Assembly (NCBI GenBank): GCA_041305345.1 | Contig: JBFYLP010000005.1 | Location: 109,817 to 173,816 of the forward strand | Source: Candidatus Micrarchaeota archaeon | GTDB taxonomy: Archaea > Micrarchaeota > Micrarchaeia > Norongarragalinales > SBBD01 | Length of the DNA: 64,000 nt | Reading direction: 5' to 3' | Shown: one piece after another, positions 1,180 to 36,374 of the stretch | How positions within the stretch are numbered: position 1 is the first letter of the stretch | Layout: every line of letters starts with the position of its first letter | The notes under the pieces: generated by a model | The model's database searches: none | Seen by the model: only the letters and a program-made list of their open reading frames with translations | What the model was told of the DNA's origin: nothing | Position numbers and translations under genes: made by a program

Positions 1180-3606
1180 CTAATCCTGGGTGCCGCTAAT
1201 GAATTCGGACACCTGCTGCACAATCTGCGCATATGAAAGCTCCATCTGCTCCCAAACATTCACCACATTGAAAAGGCTGCCAATGCCTGTTGCGGTCTCA
1301 TTCCCCGTCAGGTAATTGAAACCCCAAGCCTGGTTCCCAAGTGTCGCAACTTCGTCAAAACTCCCAAAGGAGTGCCCGCCTTGCTGATCAACAAGGTAAA
1401 CCTTCTGGTCGGCTTGGATCGCAGAATCCGGAATAGCGCTGCGTATTCCCTCCAGGATGGCCGCCCTCCCAGTGGATTCATTAACGGATTTCTGCACCAG
1501 GGCAATCCGGACAGTGAGGGAGTGGTTCAAATATACCAAAACCGATTCCGGGAAATAGTCGGGATCCCTAGCTGCGGTGAAATTGTGCGGCGCATAGGTC
1601 ACGTTGACGGTCTTGTTGCCAATGAATTCGGTCACCAGGACGGGGTTCGTGATGCCATCAACCGCTTCAAGGTTCAGGTATTCCGGGAATGACGAGGAAG
1701 AGTTGGTGATGTTCACCTTTGCGCCGGATACGAGGCTGCTTGCCTCATCGGTTACGTTGACTGCTGCATAATGCCTTACCCTCGCCTCGGAAAGCCCGGA
1801 GTAGGAGATGTTGGAAACAACCGCGCTTGAAAAGTTCACGAAGGTGAAATTCGATCCCACGAGGAACGCGATCCTAGGGTTGGTGGAATTCACGTACATC
1901 TCGTCAATGGCGCAGCTCTCGCCCGAAACCCTATAAAGGCCCTTCCGAAGGTTAACGTATTGGTTTGCCGTGAAGTTGAGGTTTTTCGTCTGGGAATCCC
2001 CATAATACACCTCAAATGACGGGTCCAGGCTGATGTTTGCAATCGTATTCCTGATGAACGATAAATTGGTAACCGTGCCCGAAAAGGAGAAGAGCGCCTG
2101 TGAATCCGTGCCATAGGTGCCGACAAACGCATTGTCGTTGAATGCCAAGTCCCTGGTTGTTGTCAGGAAGGCATAGTGGTACTGGCTGAAGTTCTCAAAG
2201 GAATTGTTGCTGAATTGCGAATTGTTCACGTTTTGCAGCCAGAGGATGTTGATATTCGTATTGGGCGCTGCACCGTATTTCACCACGTAGTTCTTCACCA
2301 GCAGGTCCTTCGATTGGTGAAAATAGAAAATCTCGTTGCTTACGTTGTTGATTGGCGAATTGGCGCCATCAAAAACGATTTTCTCCGATGCATAAACCCT
2401 GAAAAAATACTCGAATTCCGGTTTTTGCGGGTCATATGAGAAGCTCGTGTTCCTGAAGCTCAGGCGCGAGGAATTGAATATGTTGAAATGGTGCCTGTTA
2501 TCGTCGTATGTATCCGAAAAATTGGAGGAATTCACGCCATTGAGGTAAAGGCCGTACTGGTAACCGACATTGGAGGCGGAAATGCTGGTGATGTTGGAGC
2601 AGATGAAGTCCTCAATGGATGAATTTGTGGAATTGTAAAAATACGCGCCAAACGCCGTGCTGCCTTGGACCAACGATCTCGAATAGATGGAGTTGGCGAC
2701 TAGGTTTCTCGCGTGCACCTGCGATGACGACTCGACCTTAAGGCCGTATGTGAGCACGGATGCGACAGCGTACCCGAACTGCTCCGATACGTCGATACCC
2801 TCCAGCTCCACCTCACGGGAACCGCTGACCTTCACCCCGGTGTTGAAGTTCTTGATTTTGCAATCCCGGATGGTCACATTCCTCCTGTTCGCAATCGTGA
2901 TCCCAACGCTGCCCGGAGCGCGCGAGCCGCTGATGATGAACCCGTTGCAGTCCAGCGTGACGTTATCCGCAAGCACATATATGCAGCTTGATGCTGCAGA
3001 AATGCTCTGGTTCAGCTCATACACCTGGTTTGGGGATGCGAGGTTCCCGCAGGCGGAAGTGGTGTTCGGGTCCAGGATTGCCGGCTGTGCGCTTCCGCCG
3101 GAGAGTGTGAGGTTCCACGTTCTCTCAAATGAGTTTGGCATTTCCCAGTAGATGTCAAACCACCTCCTTTCCGGGCTTAGGGAAAGCGAAGCAGGCAAGG
3201 GCCTTGGATCGACGAATCTTACATTCCTAATGGTAACAGGAGAATGGCGGCAAATCGTTGCATTTAGCAATTCATCAAAAATACAATCCATTTGAAGCAC
3301 GGTTTCATCGAAATAGGCCGGGCCGACTTCCATTATTGCAAGATTCCGCGTTCCCGTTGAATCAGATAGAGCTGGCTGCATCACATACTCACTCAGAATG
3401 GGCCGGCCTGCTGCCATTGAGATTCCTACATAATTGTGGCATTTGGCATACTCGTCCGAGCCTGCCGGGGCTAAATCGCAATAATGCAAGTCCTCGGAGG
3501 TAATATCAATGCCATTTGTCAGGATAGTTTTGGCCCCGGATGATGGCAACGAAAACAAAAGGCACAATAACGCCAGCAATACGGTGCTCGAACCCGTCTT
3601 CCTCAT
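1180..3606 (-). CDS. Secreted right-handed parallel beta-helix (NosD/CASH-like) surface protein
   Basis: Signal peptide MRKTGSSTVLLALLCLLFSLPSSG at ATG 3606; CIYVLADNVTLDCNG...GI...NVTI..C.I.NF..G beta-helix signature; many N-x-S/T sequons. Confidence 0.75.
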   Translation of the reverse strand: MRKTGSSTVLLALLCLLFSLPSSGAKTILTNGIDITSEDLHYCDLAPAGSDEYAKCHNYVGISMAAGRPILSEYVMQPALSDSTGTRNLAIMEVGPAYFDETVLQMDCIFDELLNATICRHSPVTIRNVRFVDPRPLPASLSLSPERRWFDIYWEMPNSFERTWNLTLSGGSAQPAILDPNTTSACGNLASPNQVYELNQSISAASSCIYVLADNVTLDCNGFIISGSRAPGSVGITIANRRNVTIRDCKIKNFNTGVKVSGSREVELEGIDVSEQFGYAVASVLTYGLKVESSSQVHARNLVANSIYSRSLVQGSTAFGAYFYNSTNSSIEDFICSNITSISASNVGYQYGLYLNGVNSSNFSDTYDDNRHHFNIFNSSRLSFRNTSFSYDPQKPEFEYFFRVYASEKIVFDGANSPINNVSNEIFYFHQSKDLLVKNYVVKYGAAPNTNINILWLQNVNNSQFSNNSFENFSQYHYAFLTTTRDLAFNDNAFVGTYGTDSQALFSFSGTVTNLSFIRNTIANISLDPSFEVYYGDSQTKNLNFTANQYVNLRKGLYRVSGESCAIDEMYVNSTNPRIAFLVGSNFTFVNFSSAVVSNISYSGLSEARVRHYAAVNVTDEASSLVSGAKVNITNSSSSFPEYLNLEAVDGITNPVLVTEFIGNKTVNVTYAPHNFTAARDPDYFPESVLVYLNHSLTVRIALVQKSVNESTGRAAILEGIRSAIPDSAIQADQKVYLVDQQGGHSFGSFDEVATLGNQAWGFNYLTGNETATGIGSLFNVVNVWEQMELSYAQIVQQVSEFISGTQD

Positions 3607-3734
3607 TCCGGCCTCACTCCTATCCCCTGTTGAATGCGACCGGCAAACCAGCCGATCCTTAAACCCGCAAGCCTTATGGAGCCCCTTTTTTAATAACCCT
3701 CCGAACGCCCACCAGACCGCTCTCCGAATCCCTT

Positions 3735-4490
3735 TCCTTTCCAGTGTAAAGATACCTTGATTTCGCATCGTAGAGCGGTTCGCCGAAGGGTTTGTAATTG
3801 GTGTCCTCGACCACCGCGCCAGATTCATTCGTAACTAAGGTAGTGCTCCCAAGATGGTCTGGATGATAGAAATACTTCTTGCCATCGGGGTCTTTCCTCG
3901 CGATAAGCTGGGAATCGGCGTAATAGTAGATTGTGTCGAAGGTGCCCGTCGCATTTATTACTCGGAGGAAATTCGGGTTGAAGTAGAAGACGGTTTCGTT
4001 CTTGATTCTGTCGGATTTCCTGATGCGGTTGCCATCCGAATCGTAGAGGTATTCGGAAATGACGGTTCCAGTCGAATTTCCATCTCGGATTTTCGAGAGC
4101 TGATTAAACGAATTATACTCGTAATAGGATTGCGAATCCTGAACCATATTCCCGTTGGCATCGTAAATGAACGATTGGGTGAGGTTGGAAGCATTACGGG
4201 AGGTGTTTTGCCCGATTGCGAGGGATTGCTGGCTCCAGAGAGTGAGATTTCCTGCTCTTGCGGTTATTTTGTAATCTGTTGAATTCGAGTAGTTGTATGC
4301 GAGGTAGACGAAAATGCTCTCTTGGGAGGTGAGGTTGATGGGGATTGTTGAGTTGATTTGCGAAACTCCCGTGAAGAACGTGAAATTGATGTTCGAAATG
4401 TTGAAATTCGCGTTGTTCCTGATGTGGAAGCCGAAGATTTTGAGGGTGGCGTTTGTGGAGAGGAGGCGGAGGTCTTTGAGTTCGGAGAGG
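3735..4490 (-). pseudogene. Silent Rhs cassette 2: Ig-like insert plus Rhs core, truncated at DSESGL with no toxin tip
   Basis: Highly similar to 9400-10130 of the main Rhs gene; reading frame preceded by TAA with no start; homology stops just before MYYGARYY. Confidence 0.85.
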
Positions 4491-4509
4491 TGTCGGCAGA
4501 GTTTTTAGC

Positions 4510-4715
4510 ATTGGTTGCTAAAAAAAGAAAAAAAAGGGCTCTGTGCAGTTGTCAAAAGCGATAAAAAAAGAACTGCGTCTTCGCGTCTGGGCGAAGGGCT
4601 GACATCGACTTATGCGGAAAGACCGCATGTTGAAAAAAATTAAAATTTCAATGCATCGAATAACTTTGACAAAATACCTTTTTTGGCCCATTTTGTCAGT
4701 TACCGAAGGATTATC
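4510..4715 (-). repeat. Inter-cassette repeat copy A (decayed Imm 3' tail plus three-hairpin spacer)
   Basis: Near-identical to 6803-7008; inverted repeats gcagtt/aactgc (4545/4571), cttcgc/gcgaag (4579/4591), atgcgg/ccgcat (4612/4623). Confidence 0.9.
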
Positions 4716-4763
4716 ATCCACCTTTCCCAATAAATGTTCATTGATCAATAATTTTCATTTTTT

Positions 4764-5228
4764 TCACTTTTTGGTATTTTTTAATTTTTCAATTACGTCT
4801 AAAGCAATTCGATCATCTGGATATTTTTTTAAGACATCTTTTGCAATTTTTAATGCTTCACTTTCGGAAATCAACCTCTCTGGTAAATTATAGAAAAAAA
4901 GTAAAAACTGTTTGTGACCAATATTTTTTGGGGATAAATTAACTGCTCGCCTTGCATGAAATAAGGCTAAATTATACGCGTTTGGTAAATAATTAATTCC
5001 ATTGGAAAGTAGGACGGATGCAATCGAATGATATTCTGCATTTTCATTTTCATTTATTAAAAACCAAATGAAACCATATGGTGCAATACTCTTTCCATGA
5101 TAAGTTAGCTTGAAAAGAATTTCGTCTAATTTTTTAATTGTTAAATGTTTAACCAGTATTTTTGCTTTATAAAAATCTCCTGACAAGATATATTTTTCTA
5201 ATTTTGACTCCTCGGCATATATTTTCAT
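4764..5228 (-). CDS. Putative cognate immunity protein (helical/TPR-like) of the Ntox35-like tip
   Basis: ATGA overlap with the toxin stop; AT-rich; YHSIASVLL...AYNLALFHARRAVNLSP helical repeat. Confidence 0.7.
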   Translation of the reverse strand: MKIYAEESKLEKYILSGDFYKAKILVKHLTIKKLDEILFKLTYHGKSIAPYGFIWFLINENENAEYHSIASVLLSNGINYLPNAYNLALFHARRAVNLSPKNIGHKQFLLFFYNLPERLISESEALKIAKDVLKKYPDDRIALDVIEKLKNTKK

Positions 5229-6802
5229 TTTTTATTCACCCATGCATTTGAAATTGTTCTTCCACTTCCTTCTTTTTTCCAAGTCACAGTTACAACTTCC
5301 CTATTAATTTTTAATGTTGACTGATAAACTCCCTTTCCCGATTGATAAGAGCTAATCGTCCCTTCTTTTAATGTCTTATCGATAACTCCACTAACATCGC
5401 CCCAATCTTTAGGATCGCTAACAACTTTCCCCCAATCGTGTTTATCTGCCAGTATATGTGCTTGATGCGCTTGGTCGATTGCCTTAACTTCGGGTAATAA
5501 TTCTTTAACTGCTACTTTTCCGATATTTTTAGCCTCATTGGCTCTCTCCGCCTTCTTAAAATCACCTCCAGCTTCTAACGCCTTCTTCGCATCATTAAGG
5601 TCATCCGTATGCAATGCAGCCTTAGCGACAACGCCTCCACCGCCAATTAAAGGCGCCGCAGTTGATATTATATCGGCGCCAAAGCAGACCCAATTTTCCA
5701 AATGACTGAAATAACCCGCGGGATCATTTTTGATGTCGTTTATATCTTGCGCCAAGCTCAAATAATCCATGAAATCGGTAGGGGAAGCCCACTTTCCGGT
5801 TGGATCGACATACTTGTAGGGATTATTGGTTACATATGAGTAGCGGTTCATTGATTGCGGGGCATATTCGTACTCCTGCAATTCAGTATCGGGTTGAATG
5901 AATTTCCCAATCACCGGACTATAATATCTCGCCCCATAATACATCAAACCAGATTCCGAATCCCTTTCCTTCCCAGTGTAAAGATAACGCGATTTCGCAT
6001 CGTACAATGGCTCGCCGAAGGGTTTGTAATTGGTGTCCTCAACAACAGCACCACTTTCATTCGTAACGAGAGTCGTGCTTCCCAGATGGTCGGGATGGTA
6101 AAAGTATTTCTTGCCGTCGGGGTCTTTGCGGGCGATCAATTGGGAATCGGCGTAATAGTAGATTGTGTCGAAGGTTCCCGTCGTGTTTATGACTCTCAAG
6201 AAATTCTGATTGATGTAGAGGATGGTTTCGTTCTTGATTTTATCGGATTTCCTGATTCGGTTGCCGTCTGAATCATATAAATATTCGGAGATGATTGCGC
6301 CACTCGAATTTCCCTCTCTGATTCTGCTCATCTGGTTGAAGGAATTGTACTCATAATATGATTGCGAATCCTGAACCATATTCCCGTTGGCATCGTAAAT
6401 GAACGATTGGGTGAGGTTGGAGGCGTTCCGAGAGGTGTTTTGCCCTATTGCGAGGGATTGCTGGCTCCAGAGCGTTAGGTTCGATGCGCGAGCGGTTAAT
6501 TTGTAATCGGTTGAGTTAGAGTAGTTGTAGGCGAGGTAGACGAAAATCGACTCTTGGGAGGTGAGATTGATTGAAATTGTGGAGTTGATTTGTGATATTC
6601 CTGTAAAGAATGTGAAATTGATGTTCGAGATGTTGTAATTCGCGTTGTTCCTGATGTGGAAGCCGAATATTTTCAAAGTGCCATTTGTTGAGAGTAATCG
6701 TAGATTATTTACCTCGATAATTGGGCCTGTTTGGGAGATGGTTTTTTGAGCATGGGCGGGGGAGTTTTGGTAGGTGTAATTGCTGATTGTGTTGTTGTTC
6801 GT
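5225..6802 (-). pseudogene. Silent/orphan Rhs cassette 1: Rhs core plus alternative C-terminal toxin (Ntox35-like predicted RNase)
   Basis: Core YYGARYY...NPYKYVDPTG then a distinct tip HILADKHDWGKVV...ISNAWV. The only upstream ATG (6832) lies in the poly-T tract of the repeat (MPFFFFF). Confidence 0.8.
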
Positions 6803-7008
6803 ATTGGTTGCGAAAAAAAAGAAAAAAGGCATGTGCAGTTGTCAAAAGCGAGAAAAAAAGAACTGCGTCTTCGCGTCTGGGCGAAGGACTGACATCGACT
6901 TATGCGGAATGACCGCATTTTGAAAAAAATTATAATTTCAATGCATCGGATAACTTAGATAAAAACCCTTTTTTTGCCCATTTGGTTGGTTTACCAAAAG
7001 TATAATCT
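6803..7008 (-). repeat. Inter-cassette repeat copy B
   Basis: Direct repeat of 4510-4715; includes the last ~22 codons of the 6930-7562 gene. Confidence 0.9.
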
Positions 7009-7562
7009 GAAATCTTCCTAAACCAGATATTTTTCAAATTAGCCTTTTCCATAATTTGCTTGAGTTTAGATGTAACGATGAATCTTGTCTTAGAGTCAAC
7101 TGAAAAGAAATATTCGCCATTCCAATGATGTAAATCAAAATAAAATCCCTTCATGGCTGAAAGATATTTCTTCCCTTCCGAGTCTATCGAGTATTCAGGT
7201 TCACACTCGCCGATTAATAATGGTAAGGGATCAGATTTTGTTTCCATATAATAATATTTTGCCAGTATACTATTATAATTTACTTGGATTGGCCAGACAT
7301 GAAAATCACCAATATTGTTGTTCTTAAGTAAGGAGACAATTTTCTTAGAGTATACTTGTGTTGCCCACGAAGTAGCTAAAATATCCCCATACGTCGTTCC
7401 TGTTTGCGGAATAAGAGTAATTTTACCTCCTTTAACATATTCATCAAAATTTCTTTTTTGATTTAACTCTATATTTGAGATTTCTCCAGTTAACCAAAAA
7501 TATTTAGTTGCCCAACCATGCTCTAGAATATAAAAATCAGAATATCTCTGTTCAAGATTCAT
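6930..7562 (-). CDS. Orphan immunity protein, Imm11/DUF1629-like
   Basis: GDILAT...YSKKIVSLL and GFYFDLHHWNGEYFF...FIVTSKLKQIMEKANLKNIWF pattern; GGTGA SD; AT-rich; located in the toxin locus. Confidence 0.6.
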   Translation of the reverse strand: MNLEQRYSDFYILEHGWATKYFWLTGEISNIELNQKRNFDEYVKGGKITLIPQTGTTYGDILATSWATQVYSKKIVSLLKNNNIGDFHVWPIQVNYNSILAKYYYMETKSDPLPLLIGECEPEYSIDSEGKKYLSAMKGFYFDLHHWNGEYFFSVDSKTRFIVTSKLKQIMEKANLKNIWFRKISDYTFGKPTKWAKKGFLSKLSDALKL

Positions 7563-7645: not shown

Positions 7646-8515
7646 TTAATATATTGATTCGGGAGCTCCCTCAATTCTTAATGGTTTCAGGTACTCGTTA
7701 AGTTTTTTCAAGTCATTTACATACCGAGTAGTTCCAAAATAGTTGTTAAGATTGATTTCGTAATTGGTTAGTTGTAGATAGGCTCCATTCGAGACTGATT
7801 TGACGATGGCTACGGGGGCTTCATTCTTGACTTTCTCAATCCCCCCAAGCCGGGCTAAATGATGTTTATTGAGGAAATTGCCCCAATAGGCTTTAAAGAT
7901 ATTTTTACAAACCCGATTTTGGTTTATTTGGTAAAATCTGACCTCGTCATTAAGTTTCTTTTCATAAGGGGTTTCTACAAGTCCTCGATCAATATCGAAA
8001 TAGGTGATTGGGGAGAGTGTCGCTTGCCTCATATAATCCGCTAAATTATTATGAAAAGTTATAAACCCGTATTCGAAGTTTTTTAAAAGCGATTCACTTA
8101 CTATTTCATTAATCTTAAAAGCTAAATTTGCGTCTATAAAATTAATACTTAAATTTTGTGGTTTTTCAAATTTTGGAGATAAGTCAAGATGAAAACTTAA
8201 TCCAATATTTTGGTTTTTTTCCTTAAATTGATTTTTTGATCGATTTTCAATAATAATAGAATAAAATCGGTCATCCTTTATTTTATTGATTATCTTGCCA
8301 ATATTCCTTGCGGATATTTTTTCAAATCGTTCGGCTGTTGCTGTTTCCTTTTTCATAAACGAATAAGTATCGAACGGATTCTCGGCATATTTATTAATTG
8401 TTTTTACTAGGGTCAATAATTCAAGAGGGGCTTTACGAACTTCTATATGAAAATATACTGTGAACCCATATTGTAATGACTTCCAATTTTCATGTTTTAA
8501 TTCTTTTGAATTCAT
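7646..8515 (-). CDS. Putative cognate immunity protein of the REase-fold toxin
   Basis: Immediately downstream of the Rhs stop; AGGTGA SD before ATG 8515; YWGNFL...LGGIEKV...GAYLQLT resembles immunity proteins of PD-(D/E)xK toxins; AT-rich. Confidence 0.65.
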   Translation of the reverse strand: MNSKELKHENWKSLQYGFTVYFHIEVRKAPLELLTLVKTINKYAENPFDTYSFMKKETATAERFEKISARNIGKIINKIKDDRFYSIIIENRSKNQFKEKNQNIGLSFHLDLSPKFEKPQNLSINFIDANLAFKINEIVSESLLKNFEYGFITFHNNLADYMRQATLSPITYFDIDRGLVETPYEKKLNDEVRFYQINQNRVCKNIFKAYWGNFLNKHHLARLGGIEKVKNEAPVAIVKSVSNGAYLQLTNYEINLNNYFGTTRYVNDLKKLNEYLKPLRIEGAPESIY

Positions 8516-8524
8516 ATATTTCAC

Positions 8525-11500
8525 CTACCTATATGGAACAATTTCAAAGCTCCACGCTCCGGATTTACCCCAATCAGCAGGTTTGCCATATTTACTCCAG
8601 TCGGCATTTTTTGCTGCATCAATATAGCCACTAACCTGATCCCTCGTGCTTTTTAAATTTACACGCCCCTCAGGTTTTAATTCATAAATTACCCTATTAT
8701 TTAGATCTATCGCATCTGGTCTAATGCGATATCCGGGAATAGCTTTATTGGTTATCATTCCTTTTTCTCCCATTATATTGTAGAATTTTTGATGTTCGGC
8801 CATACCTTTTACTATGGCTTCTCGAGTGTTTGGATTTGCTGCTCCTCTTAAAGTTGACTTGGAACCACTATTAATCTCGCCTTCGGTAACGCTCATTGCA
8901 TTGCCAGAACCGCTTAAGGCCTTCCCAACCCCATGCCCAACCCCTCCCAGGACAATATCAAATCCTATGCCACCCGGGTCAAGCAGATTCTGGGTTAAAT
9001 CCTGCCCGGTTAAAGCATTTTCTGCCACTTGGGCCGCTCTGCCGGAGGCTACGCTAGAGCCAACTGTTGCTAATAGAGATGCACATCCTGTTAATCCTGC
9101 AACGCCCCCTGCTACACCACCAACAACTGCCGCTCGGCCTACATCTGCTAAATTTACCTGTCCGGTTGCCATATATTGTGTGCCGGCAGAAATTGCAGCC
9201 CCCAAGGCGCCTCCAACCACGGCGCCAATCACGGCCGCAGGCAAAGTAATGAAATTCCCGCTTTCATCCGTGAATTTGTACGGATTGTTTTGAACGTACG
9301 AGTATCTGTTCAAGGATTGCGGTGCGTAGGGGAATTGGATCATTGGATCTGGTTGGTAGAATCTTCCAACGTTTGGGCTATAGTAACGGGCGCCATAATA
9401 CATCAAACCCGATTCAGAATCTTGCTCCTTCCCAGTGTAAAGGAAACGGGATTTCGCATCGTAAAGTGGTTCACCGAAGGGCTTGTAATTGGTGTCCTCC
9501 ACTACTGCTCCGCTTTCATTCGTAACCAATGTGGTTGATCCTAAATGGTCGGGATGGTAAAAGTATTTCTTGCCGTCGGGGTCTTTCCTCGCAATTAGTT
9601 GCGAATCGGTATAATAGTAAATCGTGTCGTAAGTGCCAGTCGCATTTATAACTCGGAGGAAATTCGGATTTATGTAGAAGACGGTTTCGTTCTTGATTCT
9701 GTCGGATTTCCTGATGCGGTTGCCGTCTGAATCGTAGAGGTATTCGGAAATGACGGTTCCAGTCGAATTTCCATCTCGGATTTTCGAGAGCTGATTAAAC
9801 GAATTATACTCGTAATAGGATTGCGAATCCTGAACCATATTTCCATTGGCATCGTAGAGGAATGATTGGGTGAGGTTGGAGGCGTTTCGGGAGGTGTTTT
9901 GCCCGATTGCGAGGGATTGCTGGCTAATAAAAGTGAGGTTTCCTGCTCTTGCGATGATCTTGTATTCCGACGAGTTCGAGTAATTGTAAGCGAGGTAAAC
10001 GAGGATGCTCTCTTGGGAAGAAAGGTTGATTGGGATTGTGGAGTTGATTTGGGAAACTCCCGTGAAGAAAGTGAAGTTGATGTTGCTGATGTTCTGGTTG
10101 CCATTGTTCTTGATGTGGAAGCCGAAAACCTTCAAAGTTGCGTTTGTGGAGAGGAGGCGGAGGTTCTCAACGGAAATGATGGGGCCGGTTTGACTGATGG
10201 AATTGGGGGCGTGGACTGGGGAGTTTTGGTAGGTGTAATTGCTTATTGTGTTTCCATTGTTTTCGGTGATTGTTAGGATATTTCCGATTGAGGAGTAGGA
10301 GTAGTTGAGAAGGTAGTCTTCCTTCTGGGGGGAATTATCGGTCCTGCGAGCGTAAATTAAACGGTTCAATTTGTCGTAGTCCATCGTTTGAAGTATCGAG
10401 TTGTAGGTGTCTTGAATCTGCATAATGTTGGAAACGTTGTCGTATTGGTAATTGAGGTCTTGGAGGTTGGAAGTGTAAATTCTGGTGAGCCTTGAAGTTG
10501 GGAAGTCGTAAGTGAAGGAGGTGTTGAGGTCGTTGCTGTAAGCTCGGAGAACGGGTTTGTTGAAGGCATTGTGCTGTGTGAGGTTGAGGATGCCTTGAAT
10601 TGTTGAGAGCTGGTTTTGCGAGGAGTAGTTGTAGGTGATGGTTTCGGAGTTGGGCAAGGTTTCGGTTCTGAGCCTATCGAGGGAATCGTAGGTGTAATTC
10701 GTGCTGGAAGTGTTGTGGCCTATAGTCTTGAGTTCGGAGGTTTTGCGGTAGCGGGAGTCGTAGGAGAAATTGAAAGAGAAATTAACTGCTGAAATGGATG
10801 AAAGGGTTCCGTTGAGCTGGCGGTCGTAGAGGAAGCTGATGGATTCGGTTGTGGAGTTTATACGGATGAGGCGGTTGAGATCGTCGTATTGGAGGGTTAT
10901 GGCTGTGCTGCGGTTGTCCTTCTGGGTGATGAGGTTGCCGGCTGCATCATAAGAGTAGTTCCAGATGCCTAAATCCGGGTCGATTAATGAGGTTTTCCTT
11001 CCGAGAGTGTCATAGGAGAATTTGAAGGTGTTTTGCTCGTTGTCGGTGATGTTGAGGAGCTGGGAGGCTGCGTCGTAGGAGTATTTGGTGACGTATGGAG
11101 TGACTGAGTTGAATTCGTGGATTTCGGTGATTTGACCGTAAGCGTCCTGAACCTGCTTGATTTGGTTGCCGTTCTCGTCCGTGGTTGTGGTGTTCCATCT
11201 GCTGTAATTGAACGATTTGGTGGTGTTGTCGGGGTTCCTGATGGAAAGGATGCGGCTTAGAGGGTCGTAGGTGATGTTGGAGAAGGGGATGGAGGCGTTG
11301 GGGGAGGAGTAGTTTTGGGAAGGAGTGGCAAAGTAGGGGTTGGATTTTCGCTGGACGCGGAATGAGGAGTCGTAGAAAGTGTCCTGGATGATGGATTGGT
11401 TGTTTTCGGCTTCCGAGCGGGTCTGGATTAGGTTGCCACGGCCGTCATAGAAGGAGATGGAATCATAAGTGTTATTTGTGGCATTTTCCTCGCGCTGAAC

Positions 11501-14500
11501 GACTTTTATTTTTTCAGGCGCGATGCCGTCGAATTCGTACTCATAGAGGGTTGAGGGGTAGATGGGGGAGTCGTAGGGCTTGATGATTTTGATGAGGCGG
11601 CTGAAATTGTCGTAGGAGTAGTTGGTGGTAAAGCCGTTGGAATCCGTTGTTGAGAGGAGGTTGCCGGTGCCTAAATCGTAGAGGGAGGTTGTGGTATGGT
11701 TGAGGGCGTTTATTGTTTTTTCGGGGAAGGTGAATGTTGAATCCGTTATGTTGTAAATGAATTTTGTGGTGCGGTTGAGGGGGTCGGTGGTGTTGATGAG
11801 GTTGCCGTAGGAATCGTAGGAGTAGTAAGTGAATGGGTTGGTGCCGCCTTCTAGCGTTTCTTCCTTTTTAGTAAGGAGGCCTTTGTGGGGCGCTGCACCA
11901 TATGAAAGGCCGTCGTAATAGTATTTGGTCCTGCGTAGAATCTGGCTGTCAAAACCTATCAGATGATGCGAGTATGGCTCATCCATTATCCACTCGCTCG
12001 TGTTGTAAGCGTACTGGTAGATTTCGTATTTCTCATCTCCGGAAACGCCGTTCTCGCCAAAATTCGAGATTGAGAGGGGGTTGCCGTAATCATCGTAGGA
12101 ATAGGTGGTGTTGGTGATTCTGGGGTTTGAGGAGGAGCCGTCAAAAGTGAAGGATGTTTCTCCTTGGAGATGGGTTGTGTAGTAGTTGTTTGAGAAATTG
12201 GTCGTGAAGTTGTATTCCTTTTTTAGGTAGGGGTTATTGGCTGCTTCATAGGTTTCGGTTCTGAATTCCATCCCCTTCCTGCCGGAATCCTGATGGAAAT
12301 AGTGGGTTGCCTTTGAACCGTCCGCATAAGTGATGTTTGCATTGGCAAAGCCCTTGAACTCACGATCTGGGTTGGACCACACGCCGCCGGAATAGGAATA
12401 ATTTGTGGTTGAGTTTATGTGTGCGGAGCCGTTCAGACTGTTGCTCAATGTGACCGAGGAGACGAGCCAGAGGTTGAAAGGGAGGTCTGAAAACGAGTCG
12501 TTGCCGGTGTTGTTGAGTTTTGTGGATTTGAGGTAGTCGACGCTGGTTTTACCGCCGAACTGGTTCACGGAATAATTGAGCAAATATGCTTTGCTTCCGT
12601 TGTTGATGTATGCTTTATTCGTGTTGCCGCCGCCGGCATTCGTGAAGGATTGCAGGATGTCTACTGATCCATCTCCATTCGCATCTGCAAGCCTGACTCC
12701 TAAATCACCCCTGCCGTCAATCGCGAACTCCATCGGGAAGGGAGCTAAACCATAGGAGGCTTCATAAACCCAGGCGGAGCCATTGTTGAGATATGCTTTA
12801 TTCGTGTTGCCGCCCCCATAATTCGTGAATGATTGGAGAACGTCTATAAGGCCATCGCCGTTGGCATCCTCAAGCCTCGTGCCTAGGTCGCCCCTTCCAT
12901 CGATGGCAAACTCTATTGGGAAGGGAGCTAAACCGTAGGATGCATCGTAGTTCCAAGCGGTGCCGTTGTTGAGAAAAACCTTATTCGTGTTGCCGCCGCC
13001 GGCATTCGTGAAGGATTGCAGGACATCGACGAGTCCGTCGCCGTTGGCATCTGCTAACCTGACGCCTAGGTCGCCCCTCCCATCAATTGCGAATTCGACC
13101 GGAAACGGGGCTAATCCCCAAGAGGATTGGTTGTTCCAGGCGGTGCCGTTGTTTATGTAAACGGTATTGGCGTTGCCGCCGCCGGCATTCGTGAAGGATT
13201 GCAGGACATCGACGAGTCCGTCGCCGTTGGCATCTGCTAACCTGACGCCTAGTTCGCCCCTCCCATCAATTGCGAATTCAACTGGGAAGGGGGAAGGACC
13301 ATACGAGGTTTGGTTGTTCCAGGCAGTGCCATTGTTTAGGTAAATCTGGTTTGTGTTGGCTCCCAGCGAATTGGTGTATGATTGCAGGAGGTCTATGGCC
13401 CCATCGCCGTTGGCATCCGCTAACCTTATCCCTAAATCGCCCCTCCCATCGATTGCGAATTCGACTGGGAATGGGGTTGGGCCATAGGAAGCATCGTAAA
13501 CCCAACCGGTTCCGTTGTTGAGGAAAACTTTGTTCGTGTTGCCGCCCAGGGCGTTTGTATAGGATTGGAGAACATCAATAAGGCCGTCACCGTTTGCATC
13601 CGCCAACCTTACTCCTAGATCGCTTCTGTTCTCAATTGCGAATTCTACTGGGAAAGGAGAAAGACCATAGTAGGTTTCGTAAGTCCAACCCGTTCCAGCA
13701 CCAATAAAGTAAAATTTGATTGGAGCCAGTGATTGGTTTTCATTATTCCCGAATTCGGTAATATTGGCAAGGAAGGAACGGGGGCTGAAGCTTACATTGG
13801 CGTAAGCAAGACCATATTTTCTGACGAGTCGGTCGTTTGCATTTATTTGTATCTCCTTCAGCCGCCTGGAAAGCCGCACGATGTTGGAGGCATCGAATAC
13901 CTTCCAGATGTCCGGGCGGTCGGAGGTTTCATAGATGAACTGCACATCGCGCTTTCTGTCGTTGTTGAATTGGATGGAAATGGGGTAGGTCGAGCCCAAA
14001 TCGTTCGGGAAGGGATTTTCGGAATAATTGTGGAAAATGGAGTTGTTGTGGGCATCCGTGATGGAATCAAGGTACCAGCGGGTGGCGAACAAACCGGTGT
14101 GTGAGACCATTTCGGAGCTGTTCTGCGAGCCGAAAACATAGGTTTTGCCGTCCTTGGAGCGCACGCGCCAGTAAGAGCCCATCTCATTGCTTGAGGCAGT
14201 AAGATTTTCAATTGAGAGGAAGGTTTCGATCTTTGTGTGGAAGCGGTTGTCCGCATTAGAAAAAACGAGCTCGAACTCGGAACCGCCAAGCACCAGCTTG
14301 AAGGAATCGTCCGAGAAATTGTATAAAGTGTGATTGAAAGCCCTCTCGATGTAACTTAGCGAGATTTCCCATCCGGCGCCCAATACCGTAGGCAATGAGT
14401 TGGTTTTCTGGTGGTTGTAGAAGAGGGTAACTGAAGGCTGCAAACCGTTTGTGCCCGGGGGAAGCTTGATTTGGTGATTATAAGTGAACGCGCCCGTGAA

Positions 14501-14647
14501 TAAGGAAGTCTTGAACGAATCATCCTGCTTGAAATCCGGTGGCGCAACGAATTCCGGCCGGGGCTGGCCTGGCGGATCGATTGCGGCAACCGGGAATGGA
14601 ATAAGGGAAAATGCAAGCAGGAAAAGCAGCAAGCAAGATTTGCCCAT
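8525..14647 (-). CDS. Large Rhs/YD-repeat polymorphic toxin: signal peptide, SpvB/TcB-like N-terminus, FG-GAP-like repeats, YD repeats, Rhs core, Tox-REase-9-like C-terminal nuclease
   Basis: MGKSCLLLFLLAFSLIPFPVAA signal; TGAFTY...LPPGTNGLQPSVTLFYN...LGAGW (SpvB-like); DANGDG repeats; YSYD..GN repeats; HPDHLGS...YTGKEQDSESGLMYYGARYY...NPYKFTDESG; tip IRPDAID...IYELKP...Q..GY. Confidence 0.92.
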   Translation of the reverse strand: MGKSCLLLFLLAFSLIPFPVAAIDPPGQPRPEFVAPPDFKQDDSFKTSLFTGAFTYNHQIKLPPGTNGLQPSVTLFYNHQKTNSLPTVLGAGWEISLSYIERAFNHTLYNFSDDSFKLVLGGSEFELVFSNADNRFHTKIETFLSIENLTASSNEMGSYWRVRSKDGKTYVFGSQNSSEMVSHTGLFATRWYLDSITDAHNNSIFHNYSENPFPNDLGSTYPISIQFNNDRKRDVQFIYETSDRPDIWKVFDASNIVRLSRRLKEIQINANDRLVRKYGLAYANVSFSPRSFLANITEFGNNENQSLAPIKFYFIGAGTGWTYETYYGLSPFPVEFAIENRSDLGVRLADANGDGLIDVLQSYTNALGGNTNKVFLNNGTGWVYDASYGPTPFPVEFAIDGRGDLGIRLADANGDGAIDLLQSYTNSLGANTNQIYLNNGTAWNNQTSYGPSPFPVEFAIDGRGELGVRLADANGDGLVDVLQSFTNAGGGNANTVYINNGTAWNNQSSWGLAPFPVEFAIDGRGDLGVRLADANGDGLVDVLQSFTNAGGGNTNKVFLNNGTAWNYDASYGLAPFPIEFAIDGRGDLGTRLEDANGDGLIDVLQSFTNYGGGNTNKAYLNNGSAWVYEASYGLAPFPMEFAIDGRGDLGVRLADANGDGSVDILQSFTNAGGGNTNKAYINNGSKAYLLNYSVNQFGGKTSVDYLKSTKLNNTGNDSFSDLPFNLWLVSSVTLSNSLNGSAHINSTTNYSYSGGVWSNPDREFKGFANANITYADGSKATHYFHQDSGRKGMEFRTETYEAANNPYLKKEYNFTTNFSNNYYTTHLQGETSFTFDGSSSNPRITNTTYSYDDYGNPLSISNFGENGVSGDEKYEIYQYAYNTSEWIMDEPYSHHLIGFDSQILRRTKYYYDGLSYGAAPHKGLLTKKEETLEGGTNPFTYYSYDSYGNLINTTDPLNRTTKFIYNITDSTFTFPEKTINALNHTTTSLYDLGTGNLLSTTDSNGFTTNYSYDNFSRLIKIIKPYDSPIYPSTLYEYEFDGIAPEKIKVVQREENATNNTYDSISFYDGRGNLIQTRSEAENNQSIIQDTFYDSSFRVQRKSNPYFATPSQNYSSPNASIPFSNITYDPLSRILSIRNPDNTTKSFNYSRWNTTTTDENGNQIKQVQDAYGQITEIHEFNSVTPYVTKYSYDAASQLLNITDNEQNTFKFSYDTLGRKTSLIDPDLGIWNYSYDAAGNLITQKDNRSTAITLQYDDLNRLIRINSTTESISFLYDRQLNGTLSSISAVNFSFNFSYDSRYRKTSELKTIGHNTSSTNYTYDSLDRLRTETLPNSETITYNYSSQNQLSTIQGILNLTQHNAFNKPVLRAYSNDLNTSFTYDFPTSRLTRIYTSNLQDLNYQYDNVSNIMQIQDTYNSILQTMDYDKLNRLIYARRTDNSPQKEDYLLNYSYSSIGNILTITENNGNTISNYTYQNSPVHAPNSISQTGPIISVENLRLLSTNATLKVFGFHIKNNGNQNISNINFTFFTGVSQINSTIPINLSSQESILVYLAYNYSNSSEYKIIARAGNLTFISQQSLAIGQNTSRNASNLTQSFLYDANGNMVQDSQSYYEYNSFNQLSKIRDGNSTGTVISEYLYDSDGNRIRKSDRIKNETVFYINPNFLRVINATGTYDTIYYYTDSQLIARKDPDGKKYFYHPDHLGSTTLVTNESGAVVEDTNYKPFGEPLYDAKSRFLYTGKEQDSESGLMYYGARYYSPNVGRFYQPDPMIQFPYAPQSLNRYSYVQNNPYKFTDESGNFITLPAAVIGAVVGGALGAAISAGTQYMATGQVNLADVGRAAVVGGVAGGVAGLTGCASLLATVGSSVASGRAAQVAENALTGQDLTQNLLDPGGIGFDIVLGGVGHGVGKALSGSGNAMSVTEGEINSGSKSTLRGAANPNTREAIVKGMAEHQKFYNIMGEKGMITNKAIPGYRIRPDAIDLNNRVIYELKPEGRVNLKSTRDQVSGYIDAAKNADWSKYGKPADWGKSGAWSFEIVPYR
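12575..13669 (-). repeat. Six tandem 183-bp (61-aa) FG-GAP/VCBS-like coding repeats
   Basis: Unit YGLAPFPVEFAIDGRGDLGVRLADANGDGLVDVLQSFTNAGGGNTNKVFLNNGTAWNYDAS repeated six times with high identity. Confidence 0.92.
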
Positions 14648-14718
14648 CAACCCAAGCGCCCCGAAAGGTAAGATTTCAAGTAATATTTAAAGCAGTTGGA
14701 ACGGACCCTCTTTGCCGA

Positions 14719-16287: not shown

Positions 16288-17118
16288 ATGAGAAAACTAT
16301 ATACAAGGAAATTACACATACCCAAGGAAGTTCGGGAGTTCATTGCCGGCAGCGATGTCACTACGGCTATGCAGCTAAGCAAGCGTTTTGGGTTTTCAGA
16401 AATTACCGCAATGAATTACCTGAGCCGGGCGAAGAAATTGGGGCTGGGAACAAGGGTGGCCCCAAAGATGCTAATGAAGGCAAGGCACGACTATCCCGAA
16501 TTTTCAAAAGAAAAAAAACGCGTTTATGATGCGATAAGGAAAGACATGCCATTTGTGCCCATTACCATCTGGTCTACCTTTGACCTTAACCGGTATGCGC
16601 ATAACATTATAATGAAGGGAGTGATTTTTGTTGAAACTGAAGGATTTGCAGTTGAAACCGTAAAAGATAAACTTCTATCGAATGGCGTCAAGGCAATAAG
16701 TTTCAACAGCAAGGCTGACCTCCGCAATATTTTTGATCTTATGGAAACACCCGTATTGGTGATGGGAAGAAAGGACAAGGCGGGCACGAATGCAGACAAG
16801 AAAGATAAGAATTTGCATCTGCCTTCATTTGAAAGGATATTTGTAGATGTTTATTTCCTGAATACCCGAAAATACCTCTCGCTGCCGCTTTCCGAGCTTG
16901 GGAATGTACTTGAGAATATATCCGCATTCGGGTACTCACTCAACTATTCCCTGCTGAATTGGGTTGCAATGCGAAGAAATGTCCTTGCGGAAATCGAAAC
17001 CGCGTTATACTTGTTCAAGAAGAAAAGCAGCCGCTTTGCGTCAATTCCTGAAAAATTTGCAAGGAAAAGGAAGTTAAGCAAGAAGCAGTTAAATTCCGTA
17101 ATGCAAATGGTTGGTTAA
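16288..17118 (+). CDS. AbiEi-like type IV antitoxin / transcriptional regulator (N-terminal HTH)
   Basis: N-terminal wHTH-like segment, PSFERIFVDVY motif; directly upstream of an AbiEii-like gene. Confidence 0.65.
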   Translation: MRKLYTRKLHIPKEVREFIAGSDVTTAMQLSKRFGFSEITAMNYLSRAKKLGLGTRVAPKMLMKARHDYPEFSKEKKRVYDAIRKDMPFVPITIWSTFDLNRYAHNIIMKGVIFVETEGFAVETVKDKLLSNGVKAISFNSKADLRNIFDLMETPVLVMGRKDKAGTNADKKDKNLHLPSFERIFVDVYFLNTRKYLSLPLSELGNVLENISAFGYSLNYSLLNWVAMRRNVLAEIETALYLFKKKSSRFASIPEKFARKRKLSKKQLNSVMQMVG

Positions 17119-17119
17119 G

Positions 17120-18163
17120 ATGGCGGAAGAATTCAAAAGCAAGGAAATATTGGAAAAGGCAACGGCAGCCTTCACGTTTCTAAAACTCCTGACAGAGTAC
17201 GGCCTTAAGCCTTTATTCAAAGGTGGAACATGCGCCCAGCTATTCCTGCCTTCAAAACAGCAAAGGCTTAGCGGCGATATTGATATTGCATATGGTAATG
17301 AGATCGAAGTTGAAACCGCCCTAAGTAAAACCGAGAAGGATTCCTACAAGATAAAGCGCTGGCCGGATAATCCCGATCCAAACCTCCCTTTCATCAGATA
17401 TACAATAACCGCCCCGAACAAAGCCGAATTTTACCTCGATCTTATCCTTAAAGAACCCAAATACAAAACCCAGCTAACGAAGCTTGAAACAACGTATTTT
17501 ATCTCTGCAATCAAAGTCAGGACGCCCACCCTTCACTCAATTATCGGGGATAAGCTTACTACTTTGGGACCCTCGACAGTAGGGAGGGCGTTAACCGAGA
17601 AAAAAGGAGCCATCGAATATGCGAAACAGGTATATGACCTTGCGCATCTTTTGCCCCTTGCTTCAGATCAGGAGGAAATTTACGATGCTTACGGGATGGT
17701 GGTTGAGGATCAAAAGATCTTCCGCCCAACCAAAGTAATTACCCTTGAAAATTCGATTGAGGATTTGCTTTACGTTGCAAGGATGCTAACGATGACCGGG
17801 CAGGATGTTGGGAAGTTGAAAGACAAAGAAATAGGTGGGCAAATCGCATATATCAAGAATGGCATCGATGGCTTGGGTAACTTTTTGAATTCCAGCATCA
17901 AATTTGGACCCAACGAGGCGAGGGTTGCAGGAGGCCAAATTGCGTTAATTGGCATGGCGCTTAAGAAATTATCGACGGGAGAGAATCCGGATTATTCGGG
18001 GCTTAGGAAAAAAGCGCTGAGTAAGCCCGATGATGAAAGTTTTCTTCAAGAAGCCTCAAAACGGCTCATAGAATTTGAACCACTAATCGAATGGAAGCGC
18101 CTGCAGGTTTTAACGCCTAGGTCCATTCCCTACTGGTATTTTGCTTATTTTGGAGAAAGCTGA
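17120..18163 (+). CDS. AbiEii-like nucleotidyltransferase toxin (type IV TA)
   Basis: LFKGGTCAQL...RLSGDIDI motif, IIGDKLT, KQVYDL. Confidence 0.85.
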   Translation: MAEEFKSKEILEKATAAFTFLKLLTEYGLKPLFKGGTCAQLFLPSKQQRLSGDIDIAYGNEIEVETALSKTEKDSYKIKRWPDNPDPNLPFIRYTITAPNKAEFYLDLILKEPKYKTQLTKLETTYFISAIKVRTPTLHSIIGDKLTTLGPSTVGRALTEKKGAIEYAKQVYDLAHLLPLASDQEEIYDAYGMVVEDQKIFRPTKVITLENSIEDLLYVARMLTMTGQDVGKLKDKEIGGQIAYIKNGIDGLGNFLNSSIKFGPNEARVAGGQIALIGMALKKLSTGENPDYSGLRKKALSKPDDESFLQEASKRLIEFEPLIEWKRLQVLTPRSIPYWYFAYFGES

Positions 18164-19933: not shown

Positions 19934-20905
19934 GTGGTAAGATTAATTAAGCCCAAAATCCATATTATTACCATGAGGATAAGGAAAAAGGGCGTCAACG
20001 GCAACGGATACTACTACTTAGAGGAAACGATAAGACTGGAAAAGCCAAAAGTCTACTCCATATTCCTTGGAGCCAAACTACCCGAAAAGATCCAAATCGG
20101 GGGCTTTAAGCGAAAGTTGGTTGACAAGATTTACAATGACCTATTAGGGGAAAAGGAACGGATTTACCTAACAAAGGAGCAGCTGATCGAAGCTGAAAAG
20201 AGAAGGAGGAGGTATGCAGCCAAAGTAAAACTTCTCGGAAAAGCAAGGCAGGATGAAAAGGACGAAATGGATACAGTCAACTTCGTTTATACCACCCTTA
20301 CAACGGAAGGAGTCCCAATAACTAAGGAAGATGCGAATCTGGCCTATAGACTAACTCAGAAAAACATGAAAAACCTAAGGGATGAAAACCTTCGGGTCGC
20401 ATTGGACATGATCAAGGGAATCAGGTTCGTCAAGGAGAGCAAAACAGGTATTTTTAATGAATTTATCCTAAAATTGCACAATATCATCATGTCCCAATAT
20501 TCTGATAAGGGACCCGGCAGCATAAGAGATATTCCTGCTTATATCTATTTGAAAAGCTATGAAAAAGTTGAGGAAATCGGGTTTAGGCCAACTCCGCCGG
20601 AAATGATAAGGAAGAGACTTGAAGAACTGATTAAATGGTACAATGATAATGTCGGCAAAATGAATGCAATTGAATTTGCTAGTCTTTTTCACCTGCGCTT
20701 TTACACGATCCATCCATTCAAGGATGGGAATAAGAGGATGTCAAGGCTTTTGCTGAACAAAGCTTTCTTGGATTCGGGTTATCCGATGCTCAATATATCC
20801 AAGCAGTCGCAGGCATATTTTGATGCCCTGATCGGCTCAGTAGAAGGCAAGGATGAAAAGCCGTTTGTTGAGTTCGTTTATGGAAGGTTTATTTCGGATA
20901 TCTAA
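19934..20905 (+). CDS. Fic/Doc family protein
   Basis: HPFKDGNKRMSRLL motif; start may be ATG 19973. Confidence 0.9.
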   Translation: MVRLIKPKIHIITMRIRKKGVNGNGYYYLEETIRLEKPKVYSIFLGAKLPEKIQIGGFKRKLVDKIYNDLLGEKERIYLTKEQLIEAEKRRRRYAAKVKLLGKARQDEKDEMDTVNFVYTTLTTEGVPITKEDANLAYRLTQKNMKNLRDENLRVALDMIKGIRFVKESKTGIFNEFILKLHNIIMSQYSDKGPGSIRDIPAYIYLKSYEKVEEIGFRPTPPEMIRKRLEELIKWYNDNVGKMNAIEFASLFHLRFYTIHPFKDGNKRMSRLLLNKAFLDSGYPMLNISKQSQAYFDALIGSVEGKDEKPFVEFVYGRFISDI

Positions 20906-22645: not shown

Positions 22646-22730
22646 TCTGCTTCTTTTTTTGAAAGGATGCCCCACATCGAACAGCTAATCCTATTAAAAA
22701 ATCTTTTTACTCATTAATAGGGTGGTAAAA

Positions 22731-23867: not shown

Positions 23868-23953
23868 TTTTTTTCTTTTTTTCCTTTTTTTCTTTCCGCA
23901 CCCTAATTTGAAAAAGCTTAATAACGGGCCGAAATTAACCCGTATGAACCTAT

Positions 23954-36252: not shown

Positions 36253-36374
36253 CAGCTTCACCGTTTAAAACGTATCCTCGAAGGAATAAAAACATACCTT
36301 TTGCATCAATGCACGTTGTGGCCGGTTGCCAAATACCCTTTTTAATTCCATTTCCCAAACCCTAATTGATCCCG

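Follow-up and report, generated by a model that had tools for sequence, protein, structure and literature searches.

A conserved non-coding element in front of truncated Rhs toxin fragments in a Micrarchaeota archaeon

Introduction

What does a short non-coding repeat do in front of truncated toxin fragments, and how did it come to stand there more than once? The question is raised by 64,000 nt of DNA from a Candidatus Micrarchaeota archaeon (contig JBFYLP010000005.1, positions 109,817 to 173,816), hereafter the window, which carries a full-length Rhs toxin gene followed by truncated Rhs pieces. Silent arrays of toxin tips are a reservoir of new warheads for Rhs and other polymorphic toxins, and the silencing and exchange of the reserve copies have been studied mostly in enterobacteria. 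A preliminary description of the window had pointed to a three-hairpin repeat of about 200 bp as the start of every silent Rhs cassette, and had offered three roles for it: a cassette-silencing terminator, a structured RNA or a dedicated recombination or insertion site. In this work, the non-coding core of the repeat, element E, was recovered from two further genomes. We favour, with a probability of about 0.5, the reading that E acts as a terminator or insulator at the operon end and is moved along when cassettes are displaced. Coordinates are those of the window unless a comparison contig, given an L number, is named.

Structure of the direct repeat

The genes of the Rhs locus all lie on the minus strand. 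In the order of transcription they are the main Rhs gene, a TsiV-like gene, an Imm11-like gene, copy B of the repeat with an orphan Rhs fragment bearing an Ntox35 tip, the immunity gene Imm2, copy A of the repeat with an Rhs core remnant, and a host gene. BLASTN aligned 4501-4693 with 6794-6983 (193 nt, 89.6% identity, E = 1.5e-66), which bears out the direct repeats proposed at 4510-4715 and 6803-7008, and a 30-nt core pattern matched the window at copies A and B only, with 0 matches expected by chance. The homology does not end where the preliminary description had drawn it. By global alignment it spans about 1 kb (A from 4697 to 3712, B from 6987 to 5944) and comprises the last 19 codons of the Imm11-like gene, a spacer of about 140 nt and 740-850 nt of Rhs core, so the repeat of about 195 nt is merely its 5' fifth. 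The sole break in the alignment is a 61-nt gap in copy A just past the spacer. It accounts for the impression that Rhs homology begins at different points in the two copies; they share one spacer/Rhs junction (...T-run-[A/C]GCAACCAAT...).

Copy B (6794-6987, minus strand) consists of the Imm11 tail (6987-6930), a T7 run (6929-6923), hairpin 1 (6918-6902) and then E, which starts at 6899 with hairpin 2 at 6886-6869, hairpin 3 with a T7 run in its loop at 6866-6835 and a T6CT8 tract at 6827-6813, followed by a junction hairpin (6814-6798). Copy A (4501-4697, minus strand) has the same parts: Imm11 remnant (4697-4640), T7 (4639-4633), hairpin 1 (4628-4612), E from 4609 with hairpin 2 (4596-4579), hairpin 3 (4576-4545) and T8CT7 (4535-4520), and the junction hairpin (4521-4505). 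The parts first described are thus all present, from the T7 run and the three 6-bp stems to the long T-tract, and folding predicts all three stems. As for the coding tails, copy B does hold the intact C-terminus of the Imm11-like protein (...TKWAKKGFLSKLSDALKL, then the stop codon) and copy A a remnant of it; this remnant of 19 codons (LTKWAKKGILSKLFDALKF, then the stop codon) is truncated by an upstream stop and not frameshifted, and its 57 nt show 9 substitutions and none of the indels by which it had been supposed to decay. It is also true that the stems are free of differences between the copies, but with 4-5 substitutions in the 100-nt core and 0 in 36 stem nucleotides this is not significant (P about 0.10-0.16, hand calculation). 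The junction hairpin (4505-4521 and 6798-6814) shows a compensated pair between the copies (TTAGCA/TGCTAA versus TTCGTA/TGCGAA, plus strand); this hairpin has no conserved counterpart in L071, and its probable origin is Rhs coding sequence.

Element E is the 75-115-nt non-coding core of the spacer, directly 5' of the truncated Rhs fragments (core as search string: TCGCCCAGACGCGARGA). It is made up of a motif GTCG..GTCA, hairpin 2 (CTTCGC-ccagac-GCGAAG, 6 bp), hairpin 3 (GCAGTT, a 20-nt loop with the T7 run, AACTGC; 6 bp) and the long T-tract (T8CT7). The notion that the repeat marks every silent cassette does not survive: there are two copies in the window, and copy A heads a toxin-less remnant that abuts the host gene, which is no cassette. 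What the window holds is one orphan cassette (Ntox35 and Imm2) between direct repeats of about 1 kb, and not two marker-headed cassettes.

Occurrence in other genomes

A protein search with the orphan fragment of copy B (fragment B) returned 712 proteins, of which the two closest led to the contigs compared here. Among the matches listed, most were 300-900 aa long and consisted of an Rhs core end with a variable tip, and many were from DPANN archaea; proteins of this build and size number in the hundreds in DPANN archaea. The first contig, L071, comes from Hainich groundwater (ERZ1292633) and is assigned by NCBI to a Micrarchaeota metagenome-assembled genome (MAG). It encodes the 3' end of an Rhs gene, then two small genes, a short orphan with Ntox35, an Imm2 homologue of 153 aa, an Rhs fragment and host genes. 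The second, L072, is a contig of the Logan assembly (SRR22388213) on which an Rhs tip is followed by a 113-aa gene in the reverse orientation and an orphan; it also carries a gene for a tRNA-intron endonuclease. E was found in both by BLASTN, nhmmer and a covariance model alike. Over 79 nt, the L071 copy (3827-3942) matches copy A at 88.6% identity, and it precedes an Rhs fragment of 723 aa; the L072 copy (1242-1290), which retains the 5' half only, is 92% identical over 36 nt. The known family therefore has four copies in three genomes. The repeat unit as originally drawn is upheld for hairpins 2 and 3 and the T-runs, which are conserved, and not for hairpin 1 and the Imm11 tail, which are specific to the window and absent from L071 and L072.

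These copies bear directly on the suggestion that the repeat is a recent neutral tandem duplication within one genome. Such an event would suit the finding of only two copies in 64 kb, which lie in direct orientation at a distance of 2290 nt. However, homologous copies stand at the equivalent position in two other genomes, where E has changed less than the coding DNA around it; copy A and its L071 counterpart are syntenic, both in the order Ntox35, Imm2, E, tip-less fragment and host genes; and the adjacent Rhs fragments differ with a synonymous divergence (dS) of about 0.9. A simple recent duplication is refuted by the copies in other genomes, and we regard the idea as next to impossible.

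In all four copies E lies immediately 5' of a truncated Rhs fragment and on the same strand. Upstream of it stands the Imm11-like gene in copy B, the leftover Imm11 tail that follows Imm2 in copy A, the Imm2 homologue in L071 and a divergently transcribed gene in L072. Past E, the Rhs fragments start at positions equivalent to main-protein residues of about 985 (L071), 1459-1462 (window) and 1524 (L072). These differing starts could equally reflect independent joinings at a defined end or one ancestral junction followed by internal deletions, and internal deletions do occur: copy A has its 61-nt gap, and L072 has lost the 3' half of E.

The varying junction and neighbours would suit a dedicated recombination site, that is, an attC- or att-like site at which a site-specific recombinase captures or excises toxin cassettes, and small inverted repeats are present too. 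Against it stand the absence of an integrase, recombinase or transposase among the genes scanned beside the arrays (window, L071 and L072), the conservation of sequence including the loops, whereas attC keeps structure with free sequence, and the extent of the A/B repeat, which reaches about 800 nt into the Rhs core, as homologous recombination uses. Moreover, the junction differences can be explained by the internal deletions just named, and the other orphan of L071 (2508-3350) has no E. The recombination-site role is consequently not supported, the layout following from homologous recombination as set out below, and we hold it to be very improbable.

Further copies of E were found neither elsewhere in the window nor in eleven other loci from archaeal Rhs searches. 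By nhmmer and the covariance model, E was absent from the distant orphan loci L075-L079 and L082 and from the cluster members L080 and L081, and L069 and L070, which hold relatives of the main Rhs gene, have neither orphan arrays nor E. Beyond the window, too, the claim about every cassette fails, because of the other L071 orphan and of the L075 array (9345-12724), where no spacer is present and the first orphan begins 4 nt ahead of the preceding gene's stop. That orphan may be co-translated and not silent, unlike the spacer-separated fragments of the window. Other peculiarities of these contigs were noted. L082 (6001-11722) has an Ntox35 orphan and immunity gene upstream of an Rhs gene of 1005 aa that has the N-terminal part only (SpvB, TcdB_midN and FG-GAP); a LAGLIDADG-like open reading frame (ORF) comes next, an order unusual for an Rhs locus. 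L069, the Micrarchaeota contig with the closest full-length Rhs protein (P0003), carries a 188-nt direct repeat, 84.6% identical (7944-8129 and 17708-17895), around an ATPase gene, the Rhs gene and downstream genes, with one copy inside a 62-aa ORF and the other in the last part of a 267-aa gene.

Pattern searches added no copy of E. A stems-only pattern of hairpins 2 and 3 had a sole match among genome contigs, a chance terminator in a Fuerstiella MAG, and a pattern of hairpins 1 and 2 gave 67 matches in metagenome contigs, none homologous; both patterns were too strict, because hairpin 1 is specific to the window, the hairpin 2 stem of L071 is compensated and L072 lacks hairpin 3. An E-core pattern gave one chance match in viral contigs, inside a phage gene. 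The metagenome Ga0209098 contains an unrelated high-GC repeat with two small hairpins (CTGCGGCGATCAGCCGCAG ... GCTTCGCC-ATT-GGCGAAGC) in several copies per contig; it was read in L009 (4971-5019, 7261-7309, 7541-7589), and the copies in L011 (2413-2461, 2725-2773) and L024 (1072-1120) are known from identical 49-nt pattern matches only. A dispersed repeat of the miniature inverted-repeat transposable element or repetitive extragenic palindrome type was rejected for E, as there are two copies in 64 kb, both within one 1-kb repeat, and none outside Rhs arrays in the loci examined.

Sequence conservation and RNA structure

Between copies A and B, E differs at 5 of 100 positions. The adjacent Rhs third positions differ at 85 of 253 (Fisher P = 2e-9), the Rhs fragments overall at 124 of 759 (P = 0.0016) and the Imm11 tail at 9 of 57 (P = 0.04). 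This local identity is weak evidence of constraint because recombination is active at the locus. From copy A to L071 the divergence is 10.6% in E, 21.8% at Rhs codon positions 1 and 2 and 50% at position 3; to L072, where only the 5' half of E can be compared, the corresponding values are 18.8%, 17% and 46%. Across the syntenic Ntox35-Imm2-E region, the best-conserved 40-nt stretch shared with L071 is in E (37/40), and the intergenic DNA on either side of E is unalignable between genomes. To judge from these alignments, E behaves as a constrained sequence or has a younger history than its neighbours.

A rival view is that E is a frozen junction without function: DNA that happened to lie downstream of an ancestral immunity gene when a tip was first displaced, and that was later carried and homogenised by recombination. 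The Rhs copies are indeed mosaic, with 113 nt identical between remnant A and the main gene, the avoidance of stems by substitutions within the window is not significant, E is limited to a narrow clade and its folding z-scores are merely -1 to -2. On the other hand, E forms an island of 81-89% identity between genomes amid unalignable intergenic DNA; the adjacent Rhs coding DNA is 72-76% identical with saturated third positions, and a recent exchange should have brought these flanks along; and the single change in the hairpin 2 stem is compensated. We consider a functionless junction unlikely.

Structural evidence is limited to a few positions. The CCAGAC loop of hairpin 2 is invariant in all four copies, and of the six stem pairs one is compensated (U-A to C-G in L071) and five are invariant. 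Hairpin 3 has one G-U pair in L071 and is lost, or at best doubtful, in L072; its 20-nt loop is identical in copy A and L071. Of 500 shuffles, 26 reached the observed score, and the folding z-scores of the element range from -0.9 to -2.1. None of the Rfam 15 covariance models matched the window at the gathering threshold; with E-values up to 10, the region 4400-7100 gave three weak matches, all outside E, one of which (6954-7044) overlaps the end of the Imm11 tail of copy B. A tRNA and tmRNA search of the window found none. E as a structured RNA in general is weakly supported: one compensatory and one G-U pair speak for this second proposed role, and z-scores of -1 to -2 and the lack of an Rfam match speak against it.

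Several specific candidates were rejected on the way. A tRNA or att remnant was ruled out by the Rfam and tRNA/tmRNA searches, and a C/D or H/ACA guide RNA by reading of the sequence, which has no C box and no upper stem. A signal-peptide exon or small membrane ORF on the minus strand lacks a start codon, and its Phe-rich stretch is an artefact of the T-runs. A closing helix in the L071 fold is not conserved in the window copies.

The conservation could also be that of a small gene on the opposite (plus) strand, which would yield either a small or antisense RNA that enters the immunity gene at its 3' end, or a basic peptide of 34-43 aa (M-KKRKRR-PLAAVKSDKKRTASSRLGEG...). Its frame is open in A, B and L071 across the A-runs, an in-frame 3-nt indel included, with an ATG start in L071 and TTG in the window copies; substitutions in AVVKSDKKRTASSRLGEG are mostly synonymous or conservative; and the plus strand is without T-runs until a T6-T7 run within the Imm11 tail. 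However, this strand is rich in A and G, so stops are rare by chance, and the synonymous pattern is forced, since the compensatory pair is 15 nt apart and thus in the same codon phase. Downstream of 'GEG' the nucleotides remain homologous while the frame is shifted (a 1-nt indel in L071). L072 has no start codon, and codon periodicity disappears when it is included. No consistent TATA box lies at a suitable distance, and synonymous changes are too few for a constraint on protein alone. There was no Pfam match and no relative among 1.84 billion representative proteins, where the query was the minus-strand ORF across the spacer and the single weak match a 572-aa protein (E = 4.4e-05, 32% identity). 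Taken together, a plus-strand gene seems decidedly doubtful.

Proposed role in transcription termination

Of the three roles first proposed, the cassette-silencing terminator fits best, in the form of an archaeal oligo-U terminator and not of the hairpin-dependent bacterial type. Archaeal termination relies on U-tracts and requires no hairpin, and more tracts make a stronger terminator (Li et al., 2021, PMC8716108). Within about 120 nt the spacer contains a T7 run directly after the Imm11 stop codon, a T7 run in the loop of hairpin 3 and the T8CT7 tract (T6CT8 in B), so that runs of at least 4-5 U are found on the transcribed strand at the end of a gene or operon. These T-runs are on the strand that would block transcription into the fragment, and this orientation is the same in all four copies, with a different upstream neighbour each time. 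Many genes of the window end in oligo-T right after the stop codon; the gene for a PEGA-domain protein (22722-23867), for instance, is directly followed by T7CT7CCT7 (23868-23891). This suggests that a multi-T tract is the normal strong terminator of the organism.

We propose that the consecutive oligo-U tracts of E would form a strong archaeal terminator, and that E would stop transcription of the rhs-immunity operon before it enters the promoter-less Rhs fragment. The hairpins may help to define the RNA's 3' end or make it more stable, or they may bind a factor. By analogy with the published archaeal terminators, the T7 run in the loop of hairpin 3 should itself stop the archaeal polymerase, which counts against a structured-RNA role. 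A bacterial intrinsic terminator was rejected: a consensus scan found none in either copy, and the T-runs are at least 9 nt from the stems or lie in a loop. An orphan promoter was rejected as well; a TATA-like TTTTTTTAT is present, but T8CT7 follows it directly and copy B lacks the A.

Several points weigh against a terminator or insulator. T-runs leave the conservation of non-T positions unexplained, such as the hairpin 2 loop in all four copies and the hairpin 3 loop shared by A and L071, and this conservation is open to a bound factor, a role at the RNA 3' end or a younger history. The family numbers just the four copies in three genomes, and L072 retains only the 5' half of E. The other L071 orphan and the distant DPANN arrays (L075-L079, L082) have no E, which makes it dispensable for orphan arrays in general. 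Furthermore, slow divergence presumes that E and the adjacent Rhs DNA are of the same age; recombination is active here, so the contrast in divergence could be partly history.

Another account, which we consider quite unlikely, goes beyond a passive terminator: E might be a lineage-specific cis-acting signal of archaeal polymorphic-toxin arrays. A protein or RNA would then bind the invariant hairpin 2 with its CCAGAC loop and decide between silence and use of the fragment downstream, through regulated read-through or anti-termination, or through directed recombination or capture of circular cassettes at the E/Rhs junction.

Gene content and recombination history of the locus

The main gene (8525-14650, minus strand) encodes a secreted Rhs toxin of the TcB-TcC-like kind with 2041 aa, whose closest homologues are DPANN archaeal proteins, from Micrarchaeota at 54% identity and then from Nano-, Pace- and Woesearchaeota. 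It begins with a signal peptide (MGKSCLLLFLLAFSLIPFPVAA), has the Pfam domains SpvB, TcdB_toxin_midN, FG-GAP_3 and RHS_repeat, and passes through the Rhs core end (...NNPYKFTDESG) into a C-terminal Tox-REase-9 tip. Its N-terminal half contains five head-to-tail repeats of 183 nt (61 aa; 12597-13628) that are 71-77% identical. Immediately past its stop begins the putative immunity gene of the main toxin (7646-8524, minus strand; 292 aa, about 30% GC), with a weak match to TsiV (E = 0.008). The Imm11-like immunity gene follows (6930-7562, minus strand; 210 aa; Imm11 E = 6e-4, under the Pfam cut-off). A word-indexed search of a 5.8-billion-protein database found only its self-match at E <= 0.001, and a lookup of its exact sequence found no record.

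Beyond copy B comes the orphan Rhs fragment B (5225-6793, minus strand), which matches main residues 1462-1800 by blastx, is 79.4% identical to 10252-9375 of the main gene by BLASTN, keeps the core end intact and ends in an Ntox35 tip (Pfam E = 2e-8). It has no plausible start codon of its own, as the listed ATG at 6832 is inside E and reads through the T-run. Its stop is overlapped by Imm2, the immunity gene of the orphan cassette (4764-5228, minus strand; 154 aa), which had no match in Pfam or NCBIfam and shares 50% amino acid identity with the gene after the Ntox35 orphan of L071. The Rhs core remnant A (3712-4500, minus strand; main residues ~1494-1750) ends after ...DSESGL at 3712, without core end, toxin tip or immunity gene. 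The array ends at a flanking secreted gene (1180-3606, minus strand) of 808 aa rich in N-x-S/T sequons, whose signal peptide (MRKTGSSTVLLALLCLLFSLPSSGA) lies at an internal Met; the start of the listed 882-aa ORF is in another frame, within remnant A. With about 50% GC, against 30-35% for toxin tips and immunity genes, it is a host gene outside the Rhs system.

Elsewhere the window encodes DUF373, KaiC_arch-like and LonB-like genes; together with the DPANN relatives of the Rhs protein and the tRNA-intron endonuclease gene of L072, these speak for an archaeal setting. Upstream of the Rhs locus are a DUF6577 and AbiEii pair (type IV toxin-antitoxin) and a Fic/DOC gene (16288-18163 and 19934-20905). 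There are also three giant minus-strand ORFs of 2075-2594 aa (28477-36261, 40219-46734, 47723-53950), which have CarboxypepD_reg and Big_1 near the N-terminus and little else recognisable, and which are probably cell-surface proteins.

The locus has the marks of an Rhs orphan array: a full-length rhs gene with a toxin tip and then immunity genes; downstream, the 5'-truncated core fragment B, which has another tip and a separate immunity gene; and signs of recombination between core copies. The latter are read from the three Rhs copies (main, A and B), which differ by pairwise dS of 0.75-1.15 with a dN/dS ratio (nonsynonymous to synonymous divergence) of 0.08. They consequently diverged as working genes and not by silent decay in place. 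The sites shared by two copies against the third form a mosaic (68 for A with B, 76 for A with the main gene, 48 for B with the main gene), and those shared by A and B cluster toward the 5' end. Moreover, remnant A equals the main gene exactly over 113 nt (4038-4150 and 9729-9841) in spite of an overall dS of about 0.75; this is a tract of recent gene conversion.

A published model offers a source for such a layout. In it, a circular molecule that bears a new tip and a stretch of core enters the locus through a single crossover within the core, and the old tip is shunted downstream (Jackson et al., 2009, PMC2935791). Applied to the window, a circle made up of core fragment, new tip, immunity genes and spacer would cross over once within the core, the old tip would be pushed downstream, and the spacer, travelling in the circle, would end up before the displaced tip. 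The repeat-cassette-repeat layout thus looks like the footprint expected of homologous recombination with a circular intermediate, i.e., C-terminal displacement. Duplication of the spacer needs no special site, because everything between two core fragments travels in the circle.

Significance

The window shows the same array architecture in a DPANN archaeon, together with a boundary element that changes more slowly than the adjacent toxin scaffold. If E is a terminator or insulator, it would be a simple case of an archaeon keeping a truncated toxin fragment untranscribed, and it could also be used as a sequence marker of array boundaries in the clade. If a factor recognises it, E would give a first handle on the regulated use of cassettes in archaea. 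Either way the finding is narrow, with four copies in three metagenomic genomes, and it is a real but modest curiosity.

Comparison with known systems

In integrons, the attC element is conserved in structure over sequence. In Bacteroidales, Ross et al. in 2019 reportedly described arrays of orphan immunity genes that are associated with a recombinase. Both systems have a dedicated tyrosine recombinase and one element per cassette. The arrays compared here resemble both in having repeated small inverted-repeat elements that separate promoter-less cassettes among conflict genes. They differ in that the scanned neighbours include no recombinase, one L071 orphan lacks the element and the repeat runs about 800 nt into Rhs.

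Archaeal U-tract terminators that work with aCPSF1/FttA (PMC8716108) are similar to E in their runs of 4-7 or more U, often several in succession and free of hairpins. Those known are not conserved in sequence between genomes, whereas E, a predicted terminator, keeps about 50 non-T positions and two hairpins.

In Vibrio cholerae, successive displacements of type VI secretion system (T6SS) effectors build arrays of immunity genes (Kirchberger et al., 2017, PMC5361080), and the 19-codon Imm11 tail of copy A resembles the leftover of such an event. The toxin family and the domain of life are different there, and the accessible part of that report describes no conserved non-coding boundary element.

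The closest parallel is provided by the Rhs orphan arrays of enterobacteria (Jackson et al., 2009, PMC2935791; Poole et al., 2011, PMC3150448; Steele et al., 2017, PMC5727410). A full-length rhs gene with its immunity gene is followed there, too, by truncated fragments with other tips; homology joins the core fragments to the main gene, with which they recombine; a displaced tip comes without its own start; and a single crossover with a circle predicts the same junction before each displaced tip. The hosts and the secretion route differ, a DPANN archaeon with a Sec-secreted TcB/TcC-like Rhs protein here and an enterobacterium with a T6SS there. A conserved non-coding element before the fragments is not mentioned in the available parts of PMC2935791, PMC3150448 and PMC5727410 and belongs to no Rfam family, and E is better conserved across genomes than the core itself. 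The array architecture is thus known and its origin has a published model; DPANN archaea are a new setting for it and not a new kind, and what the window adds is the conserved non-coding element at the fragment junction.

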